Assembly (NCBI GenBank): GCA_019897865.1
Contig: GCA_019897865.1_4532.1
Strand: one strand, 5' to 3'
Source of the DNA: a phage
Length of the DNA: 64,000 nucleotides
Shown here: one piece after another, positions 26,734-44,410 of the stretch
How the letters are laid out: every line of letters begins with the position of its first letter
How positions within the stretch are numbered: the stretch's first letter is position 1
Notes under the pieces: generated by a model
The model's database searches: none
Told to the model about the DNA's origin: nothing
What the model saw: the letters and a program-made list of their open reading frames with translations, nothing else
Program-made: the position numbers and the translations under genes

Positions 26734-27528
26734 ATGTCCGAGAAAATCAGCCTGAAAAAACGTCAAGAAAACCTTGCTTTCTCTCTGAAAAAGAATAAGA
26801 ACCTGAACGAAGGTAAGATTGTTCTTCGTGTAGCATGTGCTCTAGATATTTCTGGTAGTATGCATGGTCTATATACTCGTGGGGTAGTGAGTGATTTTGT
26901 AGGTAAACTGCTTCCTTTTGGTATGCTGTTCGACGATAATGAACAAATTGACATGTGGGCCTTCAATACGAGTTCTCAAGAGCTTACTCCAGCAACAGCA
27001 GACGTTTACGATGACTACGTTGGTAAATGTATGCGTAATGTTCGTATCGGAGGTGGAACAAATTACGCCCCTGTAATGGCAGATATCTACGATGAGTATT
27101 TTGGCACTGTTACCAAATATGTTACCACTAAACAAGTGGTACAAGAGGAGGCTCCAAAGAAAGGCTTCTTTAATCGTCTGCTTGGTAAAACTGAAACAGT
27201 GTCTGTAGAGCGTGAAAAAGTTGTAGCTGTATCTGAACCAGGTGCTGACGTTACCCCTGGTGTTGTATTCTTCCAGACGGATGGTGAGAATGGTGATCCT
27301 AGTGCTGTTCGTCGTCTTATTGAAGAGAATAAGAATAAACCTATTTATTGGTTCATGGTTGGCGTTGGTAATGAGAAGTTTGGCTTCCTGAAAGAACTGG
27401 CAAATGCTTATGATAATGTTGGTTTTATTGGCATTAAAGATTTAGACTTGACAGATTCAGAGCTTTATGACAAACTCTTATCTGAAGAGTTCGGAGAGTG
27501 GGTTGTTAAAGTAGGTGCTAAAAAATGA
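26734..27528 (+). CDS. vWA-domain protein (TerF/TerY-like) with TerD-like N-terminal KISLKK motif
   Basis: 264 aa; MIDAS-like DISGSM; N-terminus MSEKISLKK mirrors TerD N-terminus. Confidence 0.55.
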   Translation: MSEKISLKKRQENLAFSLKKNKNLNEGKIVLRVACALDISGSMHGLYTRGVVSDFVGKLLPFGMLFDDNEQIDMWAFNTSSQELTPATADVYDDYVGKCMRNVRIGGGTNYAPVMADIYDEYFGTVTKYVTTKQVVQEEAPKKGFFNRLLGKTETVSVEREKVVAVSEPGADVTPGVVFFQTDGENGDPSAVRRLIEENKNKPIYWFMVGVGNEKFGFLKELANAYDNVGFIGIKDLDLTDSELYDKLLSEEFGEWVVKVGAKK

Positions 27529-28038: not shown

Positions 28039-28641
28039 ATGACTGATAAAATTTCCCTGAAAAAAGGCTCTAGCGAAAAAATTTCCCTGAAGAAAGTTGC
28101 TCCGGCTCTGAAAGAACTGCGCCTGGAATTCTCTTGGAAATCTGATTCTAAACTAGATCTGGATGTAAGTGCACTGGTTTGTCGTCATAATGCCGCTGGC
28201 AATCCTGAAATGCTGTCCGCACGTCATCTGGTTTGCTATGCTAATAAGTTTGATCCTGAACGTTCTACCTTCGCTGGTGACGATGTTCGTGATGGAACTG
28301 GCAGCATGGAGCAGATTGATATTACTCTGGCTAAAATCTCTCCTGATGCACAAGAGATTGCCTTTGTTCTGACTATTGATGATGATACAGGTCTGAAACG
28401 TTTTGGTCATGCTTCTGAAGGTATGCTTAAAATCTTCGACTCCGAGCGTAATGTGGAAATTCTGGATTTTGACTTCCTGGCTCCTGAAGTAGCTGGCAAC
28501 ACAATCTGCCACGTGGCTTCCCTGGTTCGTGAAGATGGAGAATGGAAGCTGAAAGCATATGGTGTAGGTAAAGCTGGTCTGGATATTTGCGATGTGGTGA
28601 TGGCCTTCGGTGGTAAAAAAGAATGGTATGAATGTCCATAA
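28039..28641 (+). CDS. terD: TerD-family protein
   Basis: 200 aa; ISLKKG...ISLKK, LDLDVSAL, GDDVRDGTG, GEWKLKAYGVGKAGL match the TerD fold signature. Confidence 0.8.
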   Translation: MTDKISLKKGSSEKISLKKVAPALKELRLEFSWKSDSKLDLDVSALVCRHNAAGNPEMLSARHLVCYANKFDPERSTFAGDDVRDGTGSMEQIDITLAKISPDAQEIAFVLTIDDDTGLKRFGHASEGMLKIFDSERNVEILDFDFLAPEVAGNTICHVASLVREDGEWKLKAYGVGKAGLDICDVVMAFGGKKEWYECP

Positions 28642-33398: not shown

Positions 33399-35177
33399 GT
33401 GTCGCACATTATAACTAAATATGGATTTGATGTTGATCTTAGCAAGGAAGGGCATACAGGTTGTCCGCGCTGCATGAAAAATGGCAAGGATCGCTCTCGT
33501 AATAACCTGATGGTTTATGGATTAGATTCTAATGGAGAGCATAAAGGTGCTAAGTGCTTTGCGTGTGAATACACTATTCCTAGCGTAGAATGGTTACGAG
33601 AAAATGGTGAAGTTTTAGAAGAAGAGGAGGAGATTGTGGGTTCGGAATTTAATAAACAGATTCATCGTAAAATTGTTCAAGAAACATCAACCAACCCACG
33701 TGGTTATCGAGGCATTAAAGAAAAAGTTTCATCTTTCTATGGTGTTCGTTATGAATACCGTCAGGAAGGGGATCAGATGGTAGTAGAAAGTTGTTTATAT
33801 CCGACTACCATCGGTAAAGAATTGGTTGGTTTTAAGCGTCGTATTCATCCTAAAGATTTCAGTAAACCTATTGGTCAAGTAGGTAAAGATGTAGATCTTT
33901 TTGGACAAATTCGTTTTGCAGACCGTTCTCATACTGTTGTAATTACAGGTGGTGAACACGATGCTCTGGCAGCTTATCAAATGCTATCTGAAAACTTGGA
34001 CAGTAAATATGAGCTTCCAGCCGTAGTAAGTGGCACAACTGGTGAAACCAGTATGTATAAACAAGTTCAGGCACAATATCCTTTCTTTGAAAAATTTAAG
34101 AAGATTATTGTTTGCATGGATAACGACAAAGCAGGTAATGAGGCATTTGAAAATATTGTTAAGGTGTTACCTCGTAACAAAGTCTACCGTATGCAGATGG
34201 ATCTTAAGGATGCCAATCAGTATCTGGAAGAAGGTCGTGCAAAAGATTTCGTAAAAGCTTTTTGGAGTGCTCGTCTATACACCCCAGCAGGTGTTTATGC
34301 TTCTAATGTCTTGTATGAAGCTGCATTGGAATGCTTGGAATCCAAGATGATTACCTTGCCTCCTTTTATGCGTGTTGCTGCAAATATGTTGGGGGGTGGT
34401 TTAGTAGAGGAAGAGATTACAGTCATCCTGGCAAAGACCAGTATCGGTAAAACTTTGATGGTGAACGAGATCACCAAACATATTATTGTTGCGCACCCAG
34501 AACATACCCTAGGTATTCTGTCCTTGGAAGCAACTTATAAGAAATATTCTCGTAACCTGTTGTCCTCGTTCCTGCATATTCCTCTACACAGGAAAACACC
34601 GGAAGAGAAATTTCAAATCTTGGAAGAGAATAAAGAAAAAATCCTAGATTTTTACGAAAGAGAAGATGGATCACCACGTTTTTATGTGTGTGATGATCGT
34701 GGAGCAGATGTGGAGTCTATCAAAGAAAAAGTTTTGGAGATGATCATCTATTTTGGAGTAACAATTCTTGTTATCGACCCTTATTCTGATTTGCTTTCTG
34801 GTATGGATGTTCAAGCCCAGGAAGAGTTAGCAACATGGTTGAAGCGCATCATGAAAGAGTATGCTATAACCATTATCGTCATCTCACACGTTAAGAAGTC
34901 GGCTAATGGTGGCAATGAACACTTAACAGAGGACGATGCAATGGGTAGTAGTTTCTTGGCTAAAGGTGCTGGTATTACCTTGGCTTTGGAACGAGATAAA
35001 GCCGCTGAAGACCCTGTAGAACGCAATACGACTCATTGCTTTATCCTAAAAAACCGTGAGTTCTCGGAAACTGGTCCGGCAGGGCAGTTTTACTATGACA
35101 TTAGAACTGCAACTCTGCATGACAAAGAGCAGTATTTCAACAATCCTGCTAATTTGCCTACGGATAGCAACTATTAA
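33399..35177 (+). CDS. bifunctional DNA primase/helicase (T7 gp4-like)
   Basis: 592 aa; N-terminal Zn finger CPRC...CFAC, central primase region, C-terminal DnaB-like ATPase with AKTSIGKT. Confidence 0.75.
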   Translation: MSHIITKYGFDVDLSKEGHTGCPRCMKNGKDRSRNNLMVYGLDSNGEHKGAKCFACEYTIPSVEWLRENGEVLEEEEEIVGSEFNKQIHRKIVQETSTNPRGYRGIKEKVSSFYGVRYEYRQEGDQMVVESCLYPTTIGKELVGFKRRIHPKDFSKPIGQVGKDVDLFGQIRFADRSHTVVITGGEHDALAAYQMLSENLDSKYELPAVVSGTTGETSMYKQVQAQYPFFEKFKKIIVCMDNDKAGNEAFENIVKVLPRNKVYRMQMDLKDANQYLEEGRAKDFVKAFWSARLYTPAGVYASNVLYEAALECLESKMITLPPFMRVAANMLGGGLVEEEITVILAKTSIGKTLMVNEITKHIIVAHPEHTLGILSLEATYKKYSRNLLSSFLHIPLHRKTPEEKFQILEENKEKILDFYEREDGSPRFYVCDDRGADVESIKEKVLEMIIYFGVTILVIDPYSDLLSGMDVQAQEELATWLKRIMKEYAITIIVISHVKKSANGGNEHLTEDDAMGSSFLAKGAGITLALERDKAAEDPVERNTTHCFILKNREFSETGPAGQFYYDIRTATLHDKEQYFNNPANLPTDSNY

Positions 35178-35710: not shown

Positions 35711-36505
35711 TTGAGCAAGTTGAATACACTTGATCAATATTACACTAACCCCGCTTATGCGGGGTTCTTATGTGATAAGATCAAAGAAATTTTTGGAGAG
35801 GAAGCTAACTACGTAGAACCATCTGCGGGAGAAGGAGCTTTCTCTTCTTGTTTTAAAAACATAACTTCTTTTGATATTGACCCTAAGTTTGAAGATTGTA
35901 TTGAGGCAGATTTTTTAGCTCAATCTGTTGAGTCTGTTGGCAGTGTAACTGCTTTTGTCGGTAATCCTCCGTTTGGAAAAAATGCTAGTCTTGCCATTAA
36001 GTTCTTTAACCATTGTGCTGAAATGTTGGATAACGAAGGTGGTATTTGTTTTATCTTGCCTCGCACATTTCAAAAAATCTTTTTTGCACACAAACTAAAT
36101 CCCCACATGCATCTTCTTTACGAAGAAGAATGTCCAAAAGGATCTTTTATTCTTCATGGAGAACCTTGGGATGTTCCTTGTGTATTCCAGATATGGATTA
36201 AACGCAACGAGAAGCGTTCTCCCGTTGTTTTAGGAGAGAATCGACTGTTCGTATTAGGTAACAGTAAAGACTACGATATAGCCGTTAGGAGAGCGGGAGC
36301 AAGTGCAGGTAAAGTGTTATCAGAAGAAGATTCTTTATCTGAAGCATCTACCTATTTTTTAAAAGCCTTGACTTCTGATCTTAAAACGCGTATCATTGAG
36401 GCTTACCCGTTACTTAAAGCTGAAGCTAGTAAAACTGCGGGAGTAAGAAGTTTAAGTTTAAAAGAACTTCAGTGGGTTCTGGAGAACATTAGAAAGGAGG
36501 AATAG
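35711..36505 (+). CDS. N6-adenine (amino) DNA methyltransferase
   Basis: 264 aa; AdoMet motif EPSAGEGAF followed by catalytic NPPF; TTG start after AGGAGG. Confidence 0.65.
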   Translation: MSKLNTLDQYYTNPAYAGFLCDKIKEIFGEEANYVEPSAGEGAFSSCFKNITSFDIDPKFEDCIEADFLAQSVESVGSVTAFVGNPPFGKNASLAIKFFNHCAEMLDNEGGICFILPRTFQKIFFAHKLNPHMHLLYEEECPKGSFILHGEPWDVPCVFQIWIKRNEKRSPVVLGENRLFVLGNSKDYDIAVRRAGASAGKVLSEEDSLSEASTYFLKALTSDLKTRIIEAYPLLKAEASKTAGVRSLSLKELQWVLENIRKEE

Positions 36506-39102
36506 TGAGTAAGTTTACATGGGATATTGAAGCAAACGGATTGTTGAATAATGACACTATTGATTATTTAGCTAGTCCTTATCGTCTCAAAGACACATTT
36601 CAAATGCACTGTATTGTCTTAGAGAACCATGAAACAGGAGAAATAGTAGCTTTCCACGATGGCCCTAAATACATCTTTGATGGGCGTCCTTATGAAGAGT
36701 CAGATGGTAAATACACATATGTTCTTAAAGAGTATGTGGCGCAAGATTACACGCATTTTCAACTAAAAGATTTCCCAGACTTTATTAATCATGAAGGTTA
36801 TTTTAAAGACAAGCCTGAATATCTGGTTGAAATGGCTGTGGCTCACAACGGTATCAACTACGACTGGTTGGCTACAAAACTGTTTTATGGATTAGATTAC
36901 AGTGTTAAATATAATACGTGGGGCAAAAATAAGGTAAAACTTATTGACTCCTTGATTTTGAGTAAAGTGTTAAACCCAGATCGAAAGATTGAGGGCAAAT
37001 CAGGACATAGCTTGGCAGCACTTTCTCGAAAAGCAGGTGGTGATGTAAAAATAGATTTCCGTAAAGAGATTCCAGAAGAAGATCGATTTAAGACTTTTGC
37101 TGCGGATATGCTTTATTACTGTATCTATGACAACAAAGCCAATACGAGCGTATATAACTACCTTATGGAAGAATGGGGCGATTATGATAAATGGGAAGGT
37201 CCATTTGAACTTGAACAACGTGTAGCAGACATTATCACACGCCAAGAACACCGTGGGTTTGCTTTTAACATGAAGCAAGCAGAAGAGAACCTTGCTTTTT
37301 TGGATGCAGAAATGGAGCGTCTTCGTTTACTCGTTGAGCCTATTTTGCCACCTAAACCAGCAACAAAAGGCTATCTTAAGGCTTTTATTCCACCTAAGTT
37401 GCAAATTAAAAAGAACTTAGAGCCAACTAACCATATGATCAATTTTGCTAAGAAACATGATGGTCATTTGGAAGAGAGGGATGGCGATTGGTGGTTAGTT
37501 ATGTTGGGGAAAGAGTGGAAACTGCCAGTTGCAGCAGATGAACCTCTATGTGATCCTAACATCCCTGCAACATTGAACGATACAACCCATATTAAAAACT
37601 GGCTTGTAGGATTAGGTTGGGTACCGTCTGAATATAAAGATAAAGACTTGACCCTTAAATCTGGAACCAAGATTAAAAAGAGCGAGGAAGAACTTCAGAA
37701 AGGTATTCGAGCTTACGTTGAGCAAACTCTATCTTCTAATTTTTGTCAGGATCGTTGTGATCATCTGGAGTGCACACCGGAAACCTTGGAAAGGAAGATT
37801 CAAGAGCGTATAGCAAAAGGTAAAGGTCGCGGTCTTAAAGTATTGACTAACCCATGTTTTACCAAAGGTCAGGAAAAAGAAATTTGTCCTAACCTGCAAG
37901 CTTTGGGTGAGAAATTTCCTTATGCTACACAGATTGTAGAATACTTAACGTATAAACACCGTAGGAACTCTATTTTAGGTGGTGGTGCCGATTGGGAAGA
38001 AGACGAAGAAGATCAAGAATACGATAAAGGTTTCTTAGCCGCAGTAAGGGCGGATGGTCGTATTCCTACCCCAGCCGCTACATGTGATGCTGCAACCTCT
38101 CGTATGAAGCATAGATCTGTAGCTAATATTCCTCGTGTCACATCTTTGTTTGGATGGGAGATGCGTAACTTGTTTGGTGTGGAGGTTCCTAAATACTTCC
38201 AGATTGGTTATGACTTCGACTCTTTGGAAGCAAAGATTGAGTCACATTATTGTTGGCGCTACGAACCGGAGCCTCATGAATACTGTAACGCTCTCTTGTT
38301 AGAGAAGCCTAACGATGTTCATACCATGATGGCAAAACGTATTACAGACACTATTGGACGTAAGTTTGAACGTAGTCCAGCGAAATCTGTTAAATACGGG
38401 ATCACTTATGGTGCACAAGCAGACAAGGTTGCTAAAACAATTGGTAGCGATAAGTTTACAGGTCAGTTAGTGTTCGATGCTTTCTGGGAAGCTGCATTCC
38501 CACTGGCACGTCTTAAAGAACGTTTAAACGATTTCTGGGTTAAGACTGGTAAACAGTATGTTTTGGGTATTGACGGTCGTAAGGTTCCTACTCGTTCTGC
38601 TCACGCGATTCTTAACTCTCTGTTCCAAAGTGGTGGGGTTATCTGTGCTAAACGTGCAATGGTTATTTATGACGATATGATCGAAGAAGAAGGACTAAGT
38701 GTTGACTTCTTTAAAGATGACTGGAAGAATAAAGACTTCGTGCAACAAATGATTGCATACCACGATGAAGCCCAGCTTGAAGTTTCTCGTAACCTTGTAG
38801 AATTCAAATGGTTTTCACCTGAATCGTTAGGTTGGAAGAAAGTAGACGATCCTGAAGAACAAAAGAAAATTGATAAAGAATGCCTTGCTAAAGTTGAAGA
38901 ATGGAAGCATAATAAGGAAAAAGAGACGGGACAAATTTGGGCTAATATTCATGAATCTCCCAAAGGTGGATGGTTTACAGCCTATAGTCGGGCAGGTGAA
39001 CTTGCTGCCTTAGCTGTTACTAAGGCTGGAGAATTTTACAATCTTAATGTTCAGCTTACTGCCGGATATGACGTGGGTAATTCCTGGGCATCCTGTCATT
39101 GA
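36505..39102 (+). CDS. family A DNA polymerase with 3'-5' exonuclease domain
   Basis: 865 aa; Exo I WDIEANGL, motif A GYDFDSLEAKI, motif B RSPAKSVKYGITYG, motif C YHDEAQ; GTG start after AAGGAGG. Confidence 0.8.
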   Translation: MSKFTWDIEANGLLNNDTIDYLASPYRLKDTFQMHCIVLENHETGEIVAFHDGPKYIFDGRPYEESDGKYTYVLKEYVAQDYTHFQLKDFPDFINHEGYFKDKPEYLVEMAVAHNGINYDWLATKLFYGLDYSVKYNTWGKNKVKLIDSLILSKVLNPDRKIEGKSGHSLAALSRKAGGDVKIDFRKEIPEEDRFKTFAADMLYYCIYDNKANTSVYNYLMEEWGDYDKWEGPFELEQRVADIITRQEHRGFAFNMKQAEENLAFLDAEMERLRLLVEPILPPKPATKGYLKAFIPPKLQIKKNLEPTNHMINFAKKHDGHLEERDGDWWLVMLGKEWKLPVAADEPLCDPNIPATLNDTTHIKNWLVGLGWVPSEYKDKDLTLKSGTKIKKSEEELQKGIRAYVEQTLSSNFCQDRCDHLECTPETLERKIQERIAKGKGRGLKVLTNPCFTKGQEKEICPNLQALGEKFPYATQIVEYLTYKHRRNSILGGGADWEEDEEDQEYDKGFLAAVRADGRIPTPAATCDAATSRMKHRSVANIPRVTSLFGWEMRNLFGVEVPKYFQIGYDFDSLEAKIESHYCWRYEPEPHEYCNALLLEKPNDVHTMMAKRITDTIGRKFERSPAKSVKYGITYGAQADKVAKTIGSDKFTGQLVFDAFWEAAFPLARLKERLNDFWVKTGKQYVLGIDGRKVPTRSAHAILNSLFQSGGVICAKRAMVIYDDMIEEEGLSVDFFKDDWKNKDFVQQMIAYHDEAQLEVSRNLVEFKWFSPESLGWKKVDDPEEQKKIDKECLAKVEEWKHNKEKETGQIWANIHESPKGGWFTAYSRAGELAALAVTKAGEFYNLNVQLTAGYDVGNSWASCH

Positions 39103-39343: not shown

Positions 39344-39510
39344 TGGGAAATGGTATCATGATTTGCTATAAAATTGTGCGTATTGTCGGAGACGAAATTA
39401 CCACTCGGTATTTTATGATAGAGTCTCAAGCCGATGAGGTTTACAATGACTGGCTTGAAAAAGGTGGATACGATTTTGTATCTAAAGAAACTTTCCGTTT
39501 AGAGGTATAA
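39343..39510 (+). CDS. hypothetical small protein (55 aa), not in ORF track
   Basis: ATG at 39343 after GGAGGAAG; ends TAA at 39508. Confidence 0.4.
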   Translation: MGNGIMICYKIVRIVGDEITTRYFMIESQADEVYNDWLEKGGYDFVSKETFRLEV

Positions 39511-39520
39511 GGAGAAAACA

Positions 39521-39739
39521 ATGCGTAAACTAGTGAGCTTTAATGTTTCAATTCTTATTGATGAACAAAATGAAGATGTTATTAAAGGTCTTGCAAATAA
39601 GATTGCAGGTGGAATGACGGAAGCTGAAGTGTGGGAAGAATGTGCTCGACTTTATGAGGAAGGTGTTATTGAGGTCTTGGGGGATGAGATTAATATGGAC
39701 GATGTTGTAAAAGTAACTGTGGAGCGTATCAATGACTAA
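39521..39739 (+). CDS. hypothetical small acidic protein
   Basis: 72-aa ORF with AAGGAG RBS. Confidence 0.5.
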   Translation: MRKLVSFNVSILIDEQNEDVIKGLANKIAGGMTEAEVWEECARLYEEGVIEVLGDEINMDDVVKVTVERIND

Positions 39740-40328
39740 ATCAAAACAAATCAATATTGCCAAAGAAATTCTTACCGTATTAAAGATCGCTGATCCTAAT
39801 TCTGTCTTGGCTGGCGGTGCTGTTCGTGATTGGCGTATTCTTGATATTGCTGGACGTGATCTGGATTTTTACACGTCTCTTCCTGCACATCGATCAGAAG
39901 AGCAAATACAAGACTTGATTGCATCTGCTTTGATGGGAACTAATATTCGTAAACTAGGAAACAAAGAGGCTTCTGATAACTACGAGGGTGTTACTGGTCT
40001 TAAACACGTTTTTGAATTTGAACGTGATGGTCAGCTTTGCAACCTTATGATTATGGACCCAAATGTAATGACAACCTTTCTGAATGAGTTTGATCTGTCC
40101 ATCTGCCAGGCTGCATTTGATGGAAAGGATTGTTATTACTCTAAAGATTTTGAAACAACTTTGGAAACAGGGATCTGCTTCTTGCACAAAGATGTTAGAG
40201 AAGATGCCAAACATGTTATTAAAATCGCTACGCGTTTCCCATATCTTCGCTTTGTTAAAGAGGTTAAGGTTCCACGTCCACCTCAAGTAGATACCAAATC
40301 GGAAGAAGAAGATGATATTCCTTGGTAA
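39732..40328 (+). CDS. minimal Pol-beta-superfamily nucleotidyltransferase (CCA/poly(A) polymerase head-like) with SSB-tail-like C-terminus
   Basis: 198 aa; LAGGAVRDWRIL...DLDFY matches the GGAVRD...D.D head motif; C-terminus EEEDDIPW. Confidence 0.5.
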   Translation: MTKSKQINIAKEILTVLKIADPNSVLAGGAVRDWRILDIAGRDLDFYTSLPAHRSEEQIQDLIASALMGTNIRKLGNKEASDNYEGVTGLKHVFEFERDGQLCNLMIMDPNVMTTFLNEFDLSICQAAFDGKDCYYSKDFETTLETGICFLHKDVREDAKHVIKIATRFPYLRFVKEVKVPRPPQVDTKSEEEDDIPW

Positions 40329-40373
40329 TTAAAGCTTGACAATATTAAACATTTTATGATAGGATAGCATTCA

Positions 40374-40766
40374 ATGACTGAACGTTCTAAGATAGCTGTT
40401 GAAACTGTTTATGGAAACTATACCAGTTTGACACTAGTTGAGAAAAATGTTGTAGGTCTTGACAACTCTTTTTATTTTCAAATTTTGGTTATTCAAGGTG
40501 GAAACAAGAAGCTAACTGCTCGTGTTGAAACATCTGAAATAATTGAAACCACTGTTACAAACAAAGAATTCATTTCACTGCAAGATACAATCCGAAACGT
40601 TATAGACGAAGAAGGCAAAGCTGCCACAATTAAACTCGGAGGTTTCCCAGTGCAAATAGTTCATTTTCCTAATGGTGAAATTGGAGTTGGAATAGGTAAA
40701 GGTAAATACCTGTTAGAGCAAGATGATATGGAAAGACTCCGCTCTTTCTGTGCAAAATTAATGTAA
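40374..40766 (+). CDS. hypothetical protein
   Basis: 130-aa ORF; no obvious SD. Confidence 0.45.
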   Translation: MTERSKIAVETVYGNYTSLTLVEKNVVGLDNSFYFQILVIQGGNKKLTARVETSEIIETTVTNKEFISLQDTIRNVIDEEGKAATIKLGGFPVQIVHFPNGEIGVGIGKGKYLLEQDDMERLRSFCAKLM

Positions 40767-40782
40767 TGTAGAGGAGATAATA

Positions 40783-41670
40783 ATGTCCGTAATTAATACT
40801 GAAACTGATCGTAAAGGCAAAACCGTAACTTATGCAACTGGTATCGTAGACTACGTTAAACTGGATAAATTCGCTGAACCTAAAACTTTTCATTGGGAAG
40901 GAAAAACGATTGTTTCAACTCACCGAGCCTCTCTTGTTCTGAAAGAGAAAGGTGCTAAACCAGATGAGAAAGGTGTTTGGATTTCTCTTGGTGACATTGA
41001 ACTGAAAGAAGGTTATGAAAACCTGCAAGTCAAAGAAGGTGATAATTGGATCACTATTGAAAAAGGTGTAGAAGTAAGTATTGATATTGATCGCGTTGAT
41101 AATAAAGGCGGTAAAACTTACTACAATACTAAAAAATCTCGTATTACAGTATTGTCTACCGATGGTGTTCAGAAGTCTAACAAATCTTCTGGCAATAAAG
41201 GTTCCAACGATGCTGCTCCTAAGCAGTCCTATAAAAAACGTGATACTGTAGGTCTGGAAACTGGTCACGCAGTAAATGGTGCACTGGAACTGATTCGTAA
41301 TGGTGTTAAAGGCGATGCTTTCGATATCGCTGGGGTTGTTCAATCTGCAACTGTCACGCTGAAATCTGAAATTGCTGAATCTCGTGGCGTTGATATTAAT
41401 GATTATGATCTTGGGGCATCTGTTGGTCACGCTATTCTCAATGCTTGTAAAGACCATACCATTAAGACTGTCTCTGTAGAAGATCTGATTGAGTCTGCTC
41501 GTAAAGTTCTGGCTCTGTCTGATAAAGTTGCTGCTGCCATTCGTGGTTCCGCAGAACAGCCTAAGAAAGAAGAGAAGAAAGAAGTTAAGAAACCTGAACC
41601 ACAACCAGAACCAACTCCAAGTAATCAAGAAGAACCTCCAATGGACTTCGACGATGATATTCCATTCTGA
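40783..41670 (+). CDS. single-stranded DNA-binding protein-like protein with host-SSB-type C-terminal tail
   Basis: 295 aa; last residues PSNQEEPPMDFDDDIPF match the E. coli SSB tail; acidic Pro-rich linker; GAGGAG RBS. Confidence 0.6.
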   Translation: MSVINTETDRKGKTVTYATGIVDYVKLDKFAEPKTFHWEGKTIVSTHRASLVLKEKGAKPDEKGVWISLGDIELKEGYENLQVKEGDNWITIEKGVEVSIDIDRVDNKGGKTYYNTKKSRITVLSTDGVQKSNKSSGNKGSNDAAPKQSYKKRDTVGLETGHAVNGALELIRNGVKGDAFDIAGVVQSATVTLKSEIAESRGVDINDYDLGASVGHAILNACKDHTIKTVSVEDLIESARKVLALSDKVAAAIRGSAEQPKKEEKKEVKKPEPQPEPTPSNQEEPPMDFDDDIPF

Positions 41671-41705
41671 TCTTATTGATTTATAAAGAGTTTTTTATAA
41701 AAGAA

Positions 41706-41736
41706 AAGGGAACCTTTGCGGGTTCCCTTTTTTATT
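41706..41736. terminator. Bidirectional Rho-independent terminator between convergent SSB and fibre genes
   Basis: gggaacc tttgcg ggttccc hairpin flanked by AAAAGAAAA upstream and TTTTTTATT downstream. Confidence 0.75.
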
Positions 41737-44410
41737 AGTCGTAATATTTCAAACCTGTAATGAACTTCGATCCCCAATCCGCACTTGCGGCGGTGAACGT
41801 CAACATCCAAGTTGTAGCTGTACCAGTGAAGACCTCTCGTTGCACAGTACCATCAGTGTGGTAAATGTCCACGCCAGTATGTCCATTCTTAGGAATAGTG
41901 AAGGTAACAGCACTGGTAGTGTCTCGTGCATAAGAACAAACAAATGGTGTCCCCGCCCAAACTGGATTTGTCATATCACCCATCTCAAGCTGTGGAACCC
42001 AAGCAATAAGACCTGCCGTACCATCTCCTGCGAAAGTGTCTGATCCACTTGCATTCAAAGCTATAATCTCATAGGTTATAGATGCTTGTTTGGCAACTGT
42101 CACTTTGTGTAGAATTACACGATACCAACCATTCCCCATATCGATTATGTTTGCATCTGCACCTGTAAATGTTCCAGCTACAAGATCATAAGTCCCTTCG
42201 TTAATCTCATCTCCTGAAGTCAATTTGAGTTTCACTTTAGTGATCCCGTCTGGCTTCAAGAATACGGATGCCGCCCAGTGCTTACCTGCTGTAATATCAG
42301 AAGCTGTATTCACTGCTGATAAAATATGTTGTCCTGAAGTTGTAGAAGGTGTTAACTTGTAAGTGTTAGCCGTAGTTCCAACCGGAGAGTTGATTGTTGA
42401 TGCTGTGACTGTCAAGTTCGTCTTCAACCACGGGGAAGCTGTTGTCAAGTTATTGTTGATAAAGATATGTGTACGGTTGGCTGCTACAACACGTCTACCT
42501 TGTGGAGTTGTACCAACATATTCTAAAGGTGCTACGGGAGCAGAACTCTCTGTAGGTACAAGGATATCTCCAGAAGCCCTGGCATAACGGTTACTCCTAT
42601 TGACCTTTACATCCGTTGGAATAGTTTCTTGCGTCAAATCATAGTCCATCACAATCACCACAGCATTCACTGCGAGATAAGAACTATCTTCGGCAGTTAC
42701 CACACCTTGATAAGTTGCTCTACAACCGATACGACAATCCCCATCAGCAACCGCTGTAATAACGCCTGTAACGGGGTCAACTGTTGCTACCGTAGGGTCA
42801 TTAGAGAAATACTCAACAACCATACCAGGTAAGCTTGCTGCTCCTGTTGGTGTTATTTCTGCTACCATTGTTTGTGTTGTTCCTACATCCATCGCAGATA
42901 AGCTAGGGGTGTAAACGCTCAATGTTGAAGCATATCCTCCAGAGGTATCTGATAAAGTTGTTCCTTCAGCGTTTAAGGCTGTCATACCTGCATCAAAACC
43001 ACCTTCTGCATGGAAAGTCATTAAACCAGTAGATGATATTGTCATGTTTGCAGGGGCAGAAGAAGTGTATTTAATATTGAAAAGTTTACCTCCTTCTGGT
43101 CTAACAGAATGTGTCAACTGTTTAGTTCCACCTACAATACAAATTCCTAAAGAATCTGTAGTTAAGCCAGTTGCCAGAATATCGCCCGTAATCACGGAGC
43201 TTGCTATTGGTGTGAATTTATTATAGTTTAGACCACTATTGAACAGATACGAGGCTTTCCCATCTTTCCAAATACCGGAATAATACATATCTCCATTATA
43301 AACGAAAAAGGTTCCTTGATAACCTAATTGGTTAGTAACATCCATATTCAGCGTATGAACGCTTGTGAGCTTGTTTATATCCCAAGAACCCACTCCTTCA
43401 GGTTTAACTGGTTTTCCCACTTGGAGTGGATCTCCGCTCGCAGAATCATACCCCAAACCTAAGTTTGCAGTGTAGTTCTTACCAATAGCCCACAAGGAAT
43501 TATTGATCCCAACGAAAAAAGAGTGGCGGCTTGGTGGAAACTTCCATGTTGAGAAACCTGCTGCAAAGGTATCCAGTTTAGTGTAGGTTGTTTCTGTATT
43601 AGATCTAACATATAAGTAGTTTACTGTACCCGTGCCACCGGAGGTATCTCCTACAACTATTGTCTGGGAAACTGTATTGATGTAATCTTTGACATACACT
43701 GTTTCAGTAGCGGATATCTTGGCATTGACAAAAGCTGTTGTTGTGTTATTATTACCTGCTAAACCTTTACTAGCTCCACAAACACGCAAGGTTCCCACAT
43801 TGTTGACATAAGAACATTGGTTGTAACCTGCATCAAAAGCAACTGCTGCACTTGTTATCTGACGAGGAGTAGAAACTTCGTTAGTAGTACTTGCACCTAA
43901 ACTACCTACTGTGTTTTGACCTGATCCATAAAGAACACCACTATTCATTAACCAGAGAGTATTGTTATATCCTCCCTTAACCTCTTTAAGATTAGCTAAA
44001 GAGATAGTCCCTGTTATTACAGATGGAAAGCTGGTCCAAGTAGTTACACATGCGTCCGTACCACCTGCTGCTATAGATCCTACCAATCCTGCTGTCAATC
44101 CTGAATATTGCCATCCTCCACTGTTAGTTTTAATAACAAAACAACGATCTGCGGTAAACACATCCGCTACTACAGTAGAAGCTAAGTGGAAATTATTGAA
44201 TCGTGCACTACGAGTTCCATCTGCAATCTCACCAAAAAGGTTTGCGCCTTGAGTAAACAATCTACCATCATTAAGCAAAATTGCTAAACTGCTATTAGAA
44301 TTACCAGCATTATCTGGGTAATCTAAAGTGATTACTTTTTTAACAATACCTGCTGGCAGAGGAACGACACCAGTGCTGGTCATAATAGTAAATATTGGAA
44401 TTGGAAACAT
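41735..44410 (-). CDS. tail fibre/adhesin-like structural protein with RCC1-like repeats and Ig-like (BIG2) domain
   Basis: 891 aa; N-terminal RCC1-like repeats; mid BIG2-like VTAVADGDCRIGCRATYQGV; Thr/Ser/Gly-rich. Confidence 0.5.
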   Translation of the reverse strand: MFPIPIFTIMTSTGVVPLPAGIVKKVITLDYPDNAGNSNSSLAILLNDGRLFTQGANLFGEIADGTRSARFNNFHLASTVVADVFTADRCFVIKTNSGGWQYSGLTAGLVGSIAAGGTDACVTTWTSFPSVITGTISLANLKEVKGGYNNTLWLMNSGVLYGSGQNTVGSLGASTTNEVSTPRQITSAAVAFDAGYNQCSYVNNVGTLRVCGASKGLAGNNNTTTAFVNAKISATETVYVKDYINTVSQTIVVGDTSGGTGTVNYLYVRSNTETTYTKLDTFAAGFSTWKFPPSRHSFFVGINNSLWAIGKNYTANLGLGYDSASGDPLQVGKPVKPEGVGSWDINKLTSVHTLNMDVTNQLGYQGTFFVYNGDMYYSGIWKDGKASYLFNSGLNYNKFTPIASSVITGDILATGLTTDSLGICIVGGTKQLTHSVRPEGGKLFNIKYTSSAPANMTISSTGLMTFHAEGGFDAGMTALNAEGTTLSDTSGGYASTLSVYTPSLSAMDVGTTQTMVAEITPTGAASLPGMVVEYFSNDPTVATVDPVTGVITAVADGDCRIGCRATYQGVVTAEDSSYLAVNAVVIVMDYDLTQETIPTDVKVNRSNRYARASGDILVPTESSAPVAPLEYVGTTPQGRRVVAANRTHIFINNNLTTASPWLKTNLTVTASTINSPVGTTANTYKLTPSTTSGQHILSAVNTASDITAGKHWAASVFLKPDGITKVKLKLTSGDEINEGTYDLVAGTFTGADANIIDMGNGWYRVILHKVTVAKQASITYEIIALNASGSDTFAGDGTAGLIAWVPQLEMGDMTNPVWAGTPFVCSYARDTTSAVTFTIPKNGHTGVDIYHTDGTVQREVFTGTATTWMLTFTAASADWGSKFITGLKYYD

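Follow-up and report, generated by a model that had tools for sequence, protein, structure and literature searches.

How does a phage come to encode a protein that ends, residue for residue, in the C-terminal tip of the SSB of Escherichia coli, and what is such a protein for? The question arises at positions 40783..41670 of a 64,000-nucleotide stretch of phage DNA (GCA_019897865.1, contig GCA_019897865.1_4532.1), which as a whole is called the window below. An earlier note, made from the sequence alone, had read the gene as a phage SSB whose tail recruits the host SSB interactome to phage DNA, and had placed the phage in an enterobacterial host. The host is confirmed: in a megablast search against phage records, positions 39500-42500 are 98-99.4% identical to Escherichia phages of the genus Phapecoctavirus, with vB_EcoM_Schickermooser as the best match, and the window derives from a phAPEC8-like myovirus of E. 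coli (Phapecoctavirus, Stephanstirmvirinae, ~150 kb myoviruses). In the records of these relatives the gene is mostly annotated as 'hypothetical protein' and in a few cases as 'SSB'. The gene and its immediate surroundings are:

39732..40328, + strand, 198-aa nucleotidyltransferase of the poly(A) polymerase / CCA-adding head-domain type, two genes upstream of the SSB-like gene
40336..40365, + strand, sigma-70-like promoter match TTGACA-18-TAGGAT with TG (consensus match only)
40374..40766, + strand, 130-aa ORF of PHROG 16560 (unknown function), directly upstream of the SSB-like gene
40771..40776, + strand, ribosome-binding site GAGGAG, 6 nt 5' of the ATG (direct sequence reading)
40783..41670, + strand, coding sequence of the SSB-like protein, a single ORF of 295 aa, ATG start, TGA stop codon included (ORF listing and translation)
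41704..41731, no strand assigned, GC-rich hairpin with T runs on both strands, a bidirectional intrinsic terminator

The promoter match precedes both the 130-aa ORF and the SSB-like gene, which are probably co-transcribed, and the hairpin lies between the SSB-like gene and the convergent gene for an 891-aa tail-fibre protein. The position of the 130-aa ORF between the nucleotidyltransferase and the SSB-like gene is not kept in distant relatives. Genes of the tellurite-resistance type also occur in the window, one for a vWA-TerF-like protein (26734..27528) and one for a protein with a TerD domain (28039..28641), and in the relative ESCO25 a TelA-like gene is annotated near genes of this type.

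The product ends in ...PEPTPSNQEEPPMDFDDDIPF, and E. coli K-12 ssb (NC_000913.3), when translated, ends in ...APAAPSNEPPMDFDDDIPF. The earlier note had given a match of nine residues, MDFDDDIPF; alignment with the K-12 protein bears this out and lengthens it to twelve:

41632..41667, + strand, residues 284-295, EPPMDFDDDIPF, the SSB-Ct docking peptide, equal to the C-terminal 12 residues of E. coli SSB

An exact match over 12 residues cannot be chance. The residues P-S-N ahead of the tip also match E. coli SSB, across a two-residue insertion (QE). BLASTP aligned phage residues 270-295 with SSB 155-178 and nothing else, and a search of all PDB sequences, both by phmmer and with the family profile, returned SSB tails only (1eqq and 7f2n). 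The dodecapeptide directly precedes the stop codon in the window's gene, leaving a DDDIPF end with a free terminal Phe. The SSB-Ct is an established docking element; in E. coli SSB, many genome-maintenance proteins dock on the 6-9 C-terminal residues (PMC5872125, PMC7913777 and PMC10164576). Since the phage tip is identical to the SSB-Ct and is carried on a long flexible linker, it should be a ligand for the same pockets, and its identity to the host peptide suggests that the phage protein probably docks to host SSB partners.

What of the remainder of the protein, which the earlier note had found unlike the bacterial SSB OB domain? This judgement stands for the sequence but not for the fold. 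Pfam gives no SSB match at E <= 1 and has no model for the 295-aa protein; NCBIfam NF006533 reaches 23 bits, where its cut-off is 260, and over residues 254-295 only; matches to the SSB PHROGs and to NCBIfam PRK09010 are confined to residues ~250-295; and the OB-domain sequence fails to match the bacterial SSB family (PF00436 / PRK09010). T7 gp2.5 is neither a sequence match nor a close fold match. Prediction of the N-terminal fold, which the earlier note had proposed, nevertheless returned a divergent OB fold for residues 1-128. The AlphaFold2 model (47-sequence alignment, mean pLDDT 82), which agrees with a model of a close relative built from a second alignment, divides the protein ahead of its tip as follows:

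40783..41166, + strand, residues 1-128, predicted divergent OB fold, putative ssDNA-binding domain, all-beta, pLDDT ~85-92
41167..41238, + strand, residues 129-152, disordered basic linker, pI ~10, pLDDT < 50 in both models
41239..41547, + strand, residues 153-255, four-helix bundle, pLDDT 90-97
41548..41631, + strand, residues 256-283, disordered Pro/Lys/Glu-rich linker, pLDDT 50-60, its sequence unconserved in the family

The layout of a disordered linker followed by an acidic tip at the very C-terminus is of the bacterial SSB type, and the linker of residues 256-283 is analogous to the intrinsically disordered linker of SSB. The solved folds nearest to the predicted OB domain are those of RPA32, Stn1 and Rim1, at 7-12% sequence identity, a likeness at the level of the fold only, with nothing to point to shared ancestry beyond the OB superfamily. 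The most conserved part of the family is the four-helix bundle, which contains the motifs RDxxGxExGHAxNGA and DYDxGAsVGHAxLNA and in which D154, G157, G161, H162, A163, G211 and G215 are nearly invariant. A specific fold identity for the bundle was sought and rejected, the matches being generically helical (a designed repeat protein, DdrC, sigma-factor domains), and an internal duplication of the helical domain, considered on account of its two GHAxN motifs, was not significant in a shuffle test (z 1.2). Foldseek against viral structures (BFVD) matched uncharacterised phage proteins only.

The position of the gene speaks to its function, for it is the last of a rightward T7-like replication operon that includes:

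33399..35177, + strand, T7 gp4-type primase-helicase (Toprim and DnaB_C, Pfam)
36505..39102, + strand, family-A DNA polymerase (Pfam DNA_pol_A, E 1.6e-13)

Distant relatives, at 31-38% identity, retain the order of primase-helicase, polymerase, a few small genes and the SSB-like gene, and on the contig of one of them the SSB-like gene lies directly 3' of a T7 gp5.9-like gene. ESCO25, a close relative with a complete genome of 149 kb, has no other SSB annotated, and no ORF of ESCO25 or of the window was matched when the OB domains of E. coli and prophage SSBs served as queries (phmmer --max); a T4 gp32-like or T7 gp2.5-like SSB elsewhere in the genome is excluded by annotation only. That a phage with its own helicase and polymerase has no other SSB candidate supports the reading of this gene as a replicative SSB. 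The gene context is also that of T7, in which gp2.5 is the SSB found beside a gp4-type primase-helicase and a family-A polymerase; gp2.5 joins an OB fold to an acidic, Phe-ended tail that contacts replisome proteins (10.64898/2026.02.22.705581). E. coli SSB (PF00436) and the phage protein share one layout, an OB fold followed by a disordered linker and an acidic tip, and their final 12 residues are identical. SSBs of temperate phages, prophages and plasmids, such as that of HK620 and a prophage SSB that ends in EPPMNFDDSDIPF (L006), are likewise mobile-element SSBs with a host-like tip, but they are true PF00436 homologues of the host SSB and the protein described here is not.

The role of phage SSB that the earlier note had assigned is well supported indirectly, by the predicted OB fold, the SSB-like layout, the position at the operon end, the conserved synteny and the status of sole candidate; the correction is that the N-terminus appears to be an OB domain, though a very divergent one. 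We consider it probable that the gene encodes the replicative SSB of this phage, a member of an uncharacterised family that uses an SSB-type tail as a docking peptide.

That family is PHROG 4477 ('unknown function'), whose profile matches the 295-aa protein over its full length (E 1.7e-97, 328 bits). It is large, restricted to phages, uncharacterised and without a Pfam model; a Pfam scan of 96 distant members yielded no shared family, just scattered single-member matches, and a search of the literature on phAPEC8, Phapecoctavirus and rV5 together with SSB found no experimental paper on any member. A word-indexed search produced 137 relatives, and an exhaustive profile search of 1.84 billion representatives produced at least 318 family clusters at 50% identity. 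Members fall into two size classes, of ~270-300 aa and ~370-420 aa. The longer proteins carry an extra beta-rich insert of ~70 residues (KVYGEV...VGGRLAA...) between the OB fold and the bundle, as in P0069, P0078, P0091 and rV5 gp209 (residues ~170-235), and this insert may be a second small barrel domain. Isolated phages with the gene belong to the Stephanstirmvirinae and Vequintavirinae (rV5, CR3, SSE121 and others), and their hosts are Enterobacterales. The gene is also found in ~20 records labelled 'Campylobacter phage' (host C. jejuni; MG065689.1, MG065644.1 and others), where its copies show the same levels of identity as those of E. coli phi92-like and rV5-like phages; these records are probably coliphage contaminants or bear mislabelled hosts. 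The host labels of the records 'Pseudomonas phage PsgM04F' and 'Acinetobacter phage ABPH49' are equally doubtful.

The C-termini of 259 collected members show how widely the tip is kept. An ending of the form [ILVMC]PF occurs in 219 of them (~85%, acidic-[ILV]PF), DDDIPF in 92, MDFDDDIPF in 36 and the full E. coli 12-mer in 17, all of the last within the clade closest to the phage (17/120, versus 0/139 among distant representatives). This distribution indicates that an acidic-[ILV]PF ending is ancestral to PHROG 4477 and that it is host-identical only in the closest clade. Confinement of the 12-mer to a clade whose known members infect Enterobacterales fits a matching of the tip to host partners, and the conservation of the tip behind an unconserved linker points to strong selection acting on a short linear motif at the C-terminus. 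EPP[MV]DFDDDIPF is retained exactly in relatives whose overall identity is ~60%, next to a linker that has become unrecognisable; a motif unchanged beside scrambled sequence is what would be expected if the partner were a host protein, which does not co-evolve with the phage.

So close a match invites the explanation that the 3' end of a host or prophage ssb gene was recently fused onto an unrelated phage gene by horizontal transfer. The exact identity of 12 residues, the P-S-N upstream of them and the abundance of prophage and plasmid ssb genes in E. coli all speak for it. The nucleotide sequence says otherwise: only 4 of the 11 degenerate codons of the tail agree with those of K-12 ssb, Ser being AGT in the phage and TCT in the host, and blastn against 5,426 complete E. 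coli genomes found merely matches of 43-51 nt at 78-86% identity (E 0.03-1), which lie in chromosomal, prophage or plasmid ssb genes. Scrambled synonymous sites and such marginal matches imply that the phage did not take its tail from the host in recent times, and rule out a recent capture of the host ssb 3' end; an acidic-[ILV]PF tail ancestral to a family of at least 318 clusters argues in the same direction. Recent acquisition of the tail is thus already contradicted, and we regard it as highly improbable, while the last ~12 codons may have been exchanged long ago among members of the enterobacterial clade.

The free tip of the window's gene is one of two natural states. Several family clusters, one of them 99% identical to the window protein, continue past ...IPF with APIGLQYGRNFLHCF (+15 residues), an extension beginning APIGLQY that the window's own gene lacks. 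It is carried, at lengths of 15-17 residues, by the near-identical and viable phages Mt1B1_P17, ZCKP1, nieznany and vB_Ec-G1, and by rV5. Directly after the SSB gene of Mt1B1_P17, ZCKP1, nieznany and PsgM04F comes a gene for a 164-aa HNH endonuclease, whose ATG falls within the codons for LQY-G in the SSB extension; vB_Ec-G1 keeps the extension, although its endonuclease ORF has suffered an internal deletion. In rV5, gp209 ends in ...DDIPF-APVGLQYGKSRIHAL and its gene is overlapped by that of the endonuclease gp208. The loci in the relatives are:

L002, 4886-4933, extension / SSB locus
L008 and L009, ~1530-1574, extension / SSB locus
L047, 901-2172, extension / SSB locus (rV5 gp209)
L002, 4905-5399, HNH endonuclease gene
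L008, 1633-2040, HNH endonuclease gene
L009, ~1575-1640, HNH endonuclease gene (remnant)
L047, 2144-2760, HNH endonuclease gene

The pairing of the HNH gene with the 'APIGLQYG...' extension has the look of the life cycle of a homing endonuclease that targets the 3' ends of SSB genes, and the HNH link is limited to this subtype. A degenerate DNA scan of IMG/VR for DIPFAPIGLQY recovered 34 contigs (L013-L046), most of which are phage contigs of 40-55 kb that encode canonical OB-type SSBs ending in ...DDDIPF-APIGLQYPALLNCM, with unrelated downstream genes; some canonical mobile-element SSBs, in other words, bear the same post-tip extension as the relatives of this gene. As a general explanation, an origin of the +15 extension as a mere by-product of the overlapping HNH gene is rejected on account of these contigs and of the codon variation described next. 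The consensus, APIGLQY-[PGRK]-x-[LI]-[LIV]-x-[CA]-[MILF] over 14-17 residues, holds in PHROG 4477 and in canonical SSBs alike, and the seven codons of APIGLQY show synonymous variation (three different codons for Ala and four each for Pro, Gly and Leu), from which it follows that selection acts on the peptide. The string PIGLQY was not found in the literature searched. Docking of the extension back onto the protein was considered and is not supported, as residues 296-310 of the capped variant are disordered in the AlphaFold2 model (pLDDT < 50). PsgM04F, considered as a case of host tracking of the tail, was uninformative: it keeps ...GMDFDDDIPF plus the extension, and its 'Pseudomonas' label may not mean a different SSB tip.

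The existence of viable phages with an extended tip implies that plaques can form without a free ...IPF carboxyl end, provided that the extension is not cleaved off after translation. The extension would bury the carboxylate of the terminal Phe and should block pockets that hold it, so that these phages can at least do without docking to the host through a free tip. From the ...YDFCDDIPF of rV5 gp209 it follows that identity beyond the last ~6 residues is not required for growth on E. coli. The capped form may constitute a second linear motif with a partner of its own, or may hide the tip from host proteins or from defences that sense SSB.

A second protein of the operon has a tail of the same kind. 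The nucleotidyltransferase ends in ...EEEDDIPW (tail codons ~40311-40325), which resembles the SSB tip; a DD[ID][IF]PW tail is kept in all ten of ten homologues of 58-96% identity, the preceding segment varying, and two homologues of 31-33% identity are without a tail of the DDIPW type. Such endings are rare in ESCO25: among its 628 ORFs of 50 aa or more, only four close with an acidic stretch and an aromatic residue, namely those for the SSB-like protein, the nucleotidyltransferase, the beta subunit of ribonucleotide reductase and a 54-aa product. The tail of ribonucleotide reductase beta is a subunit-docking peptide. In T7 the SSB and the helicase both carry acidic tails ending in an aromatic residue, a pattern that the DDIPW tail recalls.

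These observations bear on whom the tail serves. The protein could be a phage SSB whose tail is directed mainly or only at phage partners (the polymerase, the primase-helicase, the nucleotidyltransferase or another neighbour), its identity with the host tip being inherited or incidental and not a matter of host recruitment. The replisome is T7-like, and a T7 gp5.9-like gene adjoins the SSB-like gene in one relative; the acidic-[ILV]PF ending is family-wide and extends far from the enterobacterial clade; and the conserved DDIPW tail belongs to a protein of the same operon. There is precedent for tails of this sort acting on phage-encoded partners, for the tail and last Phe of the T7 SSB are needed to contact the T7 polymerase and helicase (10.64898/2026.02.22.705581), and in HK620 the Sak4 protein of the phage is recruited by the six C-terminal residues of its SSB (PMC5928155). 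A tail and a phage partner could drift together, however, and yet relatives of ~60% identity hold EPP[MV]DFDDDIPF without change. We therefore treat an exclusive or predominant service to phage partners as possible but doubtful, and favour, on the strength of the peptide identity, docking to host proteins, possibly alongside docking to phage proteins. This preference has to accommodate the relatives, rV5 among them, that grow with 15-17 residues past the tip, which counts against a replicative SSB that docks to the host as well, and the short match of rV5 gp209, which has only ...YDFCDDIPF before its extension.

A further possibility is that the protein is no replicative SSB at all, and displays the SSB-Ct as a decoy or hub-hijacker, to titrate or redirect host nucleases, helicases and restart factors, or to disguise phage nucleoprotein as 'self' against defences that distinguish SSBs. 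Mimicry perfect over 12 residues would suit such an agent, and the fact that the helical bundle and not the OB fold is the best-conserved part tells both for it and against a replicative SSB. Several defence systems, namely Hna, AbpAB, retron-Eco8 and DARNA, are triggered through phage SSBs (10.64898/2026.02.22.705581). A decoy would need neither an OB fold nor a long SSB-like linker, however, and an OB fold is predicted; the synteny with helicase and polymerase is kept in distant relatives, the genome of a phage with its own replisome offers no alternative SSB, and neither PADLOC nor the anti-defence families gave a match to the 295-aa protein. We judge a decoy function quite improbable.

As a replicative SSB, the protein would act as follows. 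The N-terminal OB fold would bind the ssDNA exposed by the T7-like primase-helicase and family-A polymerase; the four-helix bundle would probably mediate self-association or cooperativity, or hold a phage partner; and the long disordered linker would present EPPMDFDDDIPF as a C-terminal docking handle. Because this peptide does not differ from the SSB-Ct of the host, host proteins that bind the SSB-Ct, among them Pol III chi, PriA, RecQ, ExoI, RecO, RecG and DnaG, should recognise ssDNA that the phage protein has coated. The tail may also contact the phage polymerase and helicase, as does that of T7 gp2.5.

Both SSBs of mobile elements with tails like that of the host and phage SSBs whose acidic tails end in Phe are already established. 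The finding reported here is real, and the gene very probably encodes a phage SSB in which a divergent OB fold and a novel helical bundle are joined to a tail of the SSB type. The least expected items are the capped-tip motif and the tailed nucleotidyltransferase, and they point to a broader interpretation, in which the family is a separate class of phage SSB hub and the SSB-Ct a host-matched, exchangeable docking module of a wider phage-encoded network. Through its DDIPW tail the nucleotidyltransferase may be brought to the pockets that receive the SSB tip, whether on host SSB partners, the phage SSB or the replisome, and near-identical phages switch between a free tip and an APIGLQY-capped one, a peptide that in this family travels with an HNH gene. 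We put this broader interpretation forward as speculative and, on balance, unlikely.

Phage therapy collections make wide use of large myoviruses of the phAPEC8, phi92 and rV5 groups, whose hosts are E. coli, Salmonella and Klebsiella. Naming the gene as a probable SSB fills a gap in the replication module of these phages and adds a new conserved helical domain. An identical 12-residue peptide on a non-homologous scaffold offers a way to ask how much of the host SSB interactome the peptide alone recruits, and the host-identical tip, together with its natural capped and uncapped variants, provides material for the study of self versus non-self discrimination by SSB-triggered defences such as retron-Eco8, Hna, AbpAB and DARNA.
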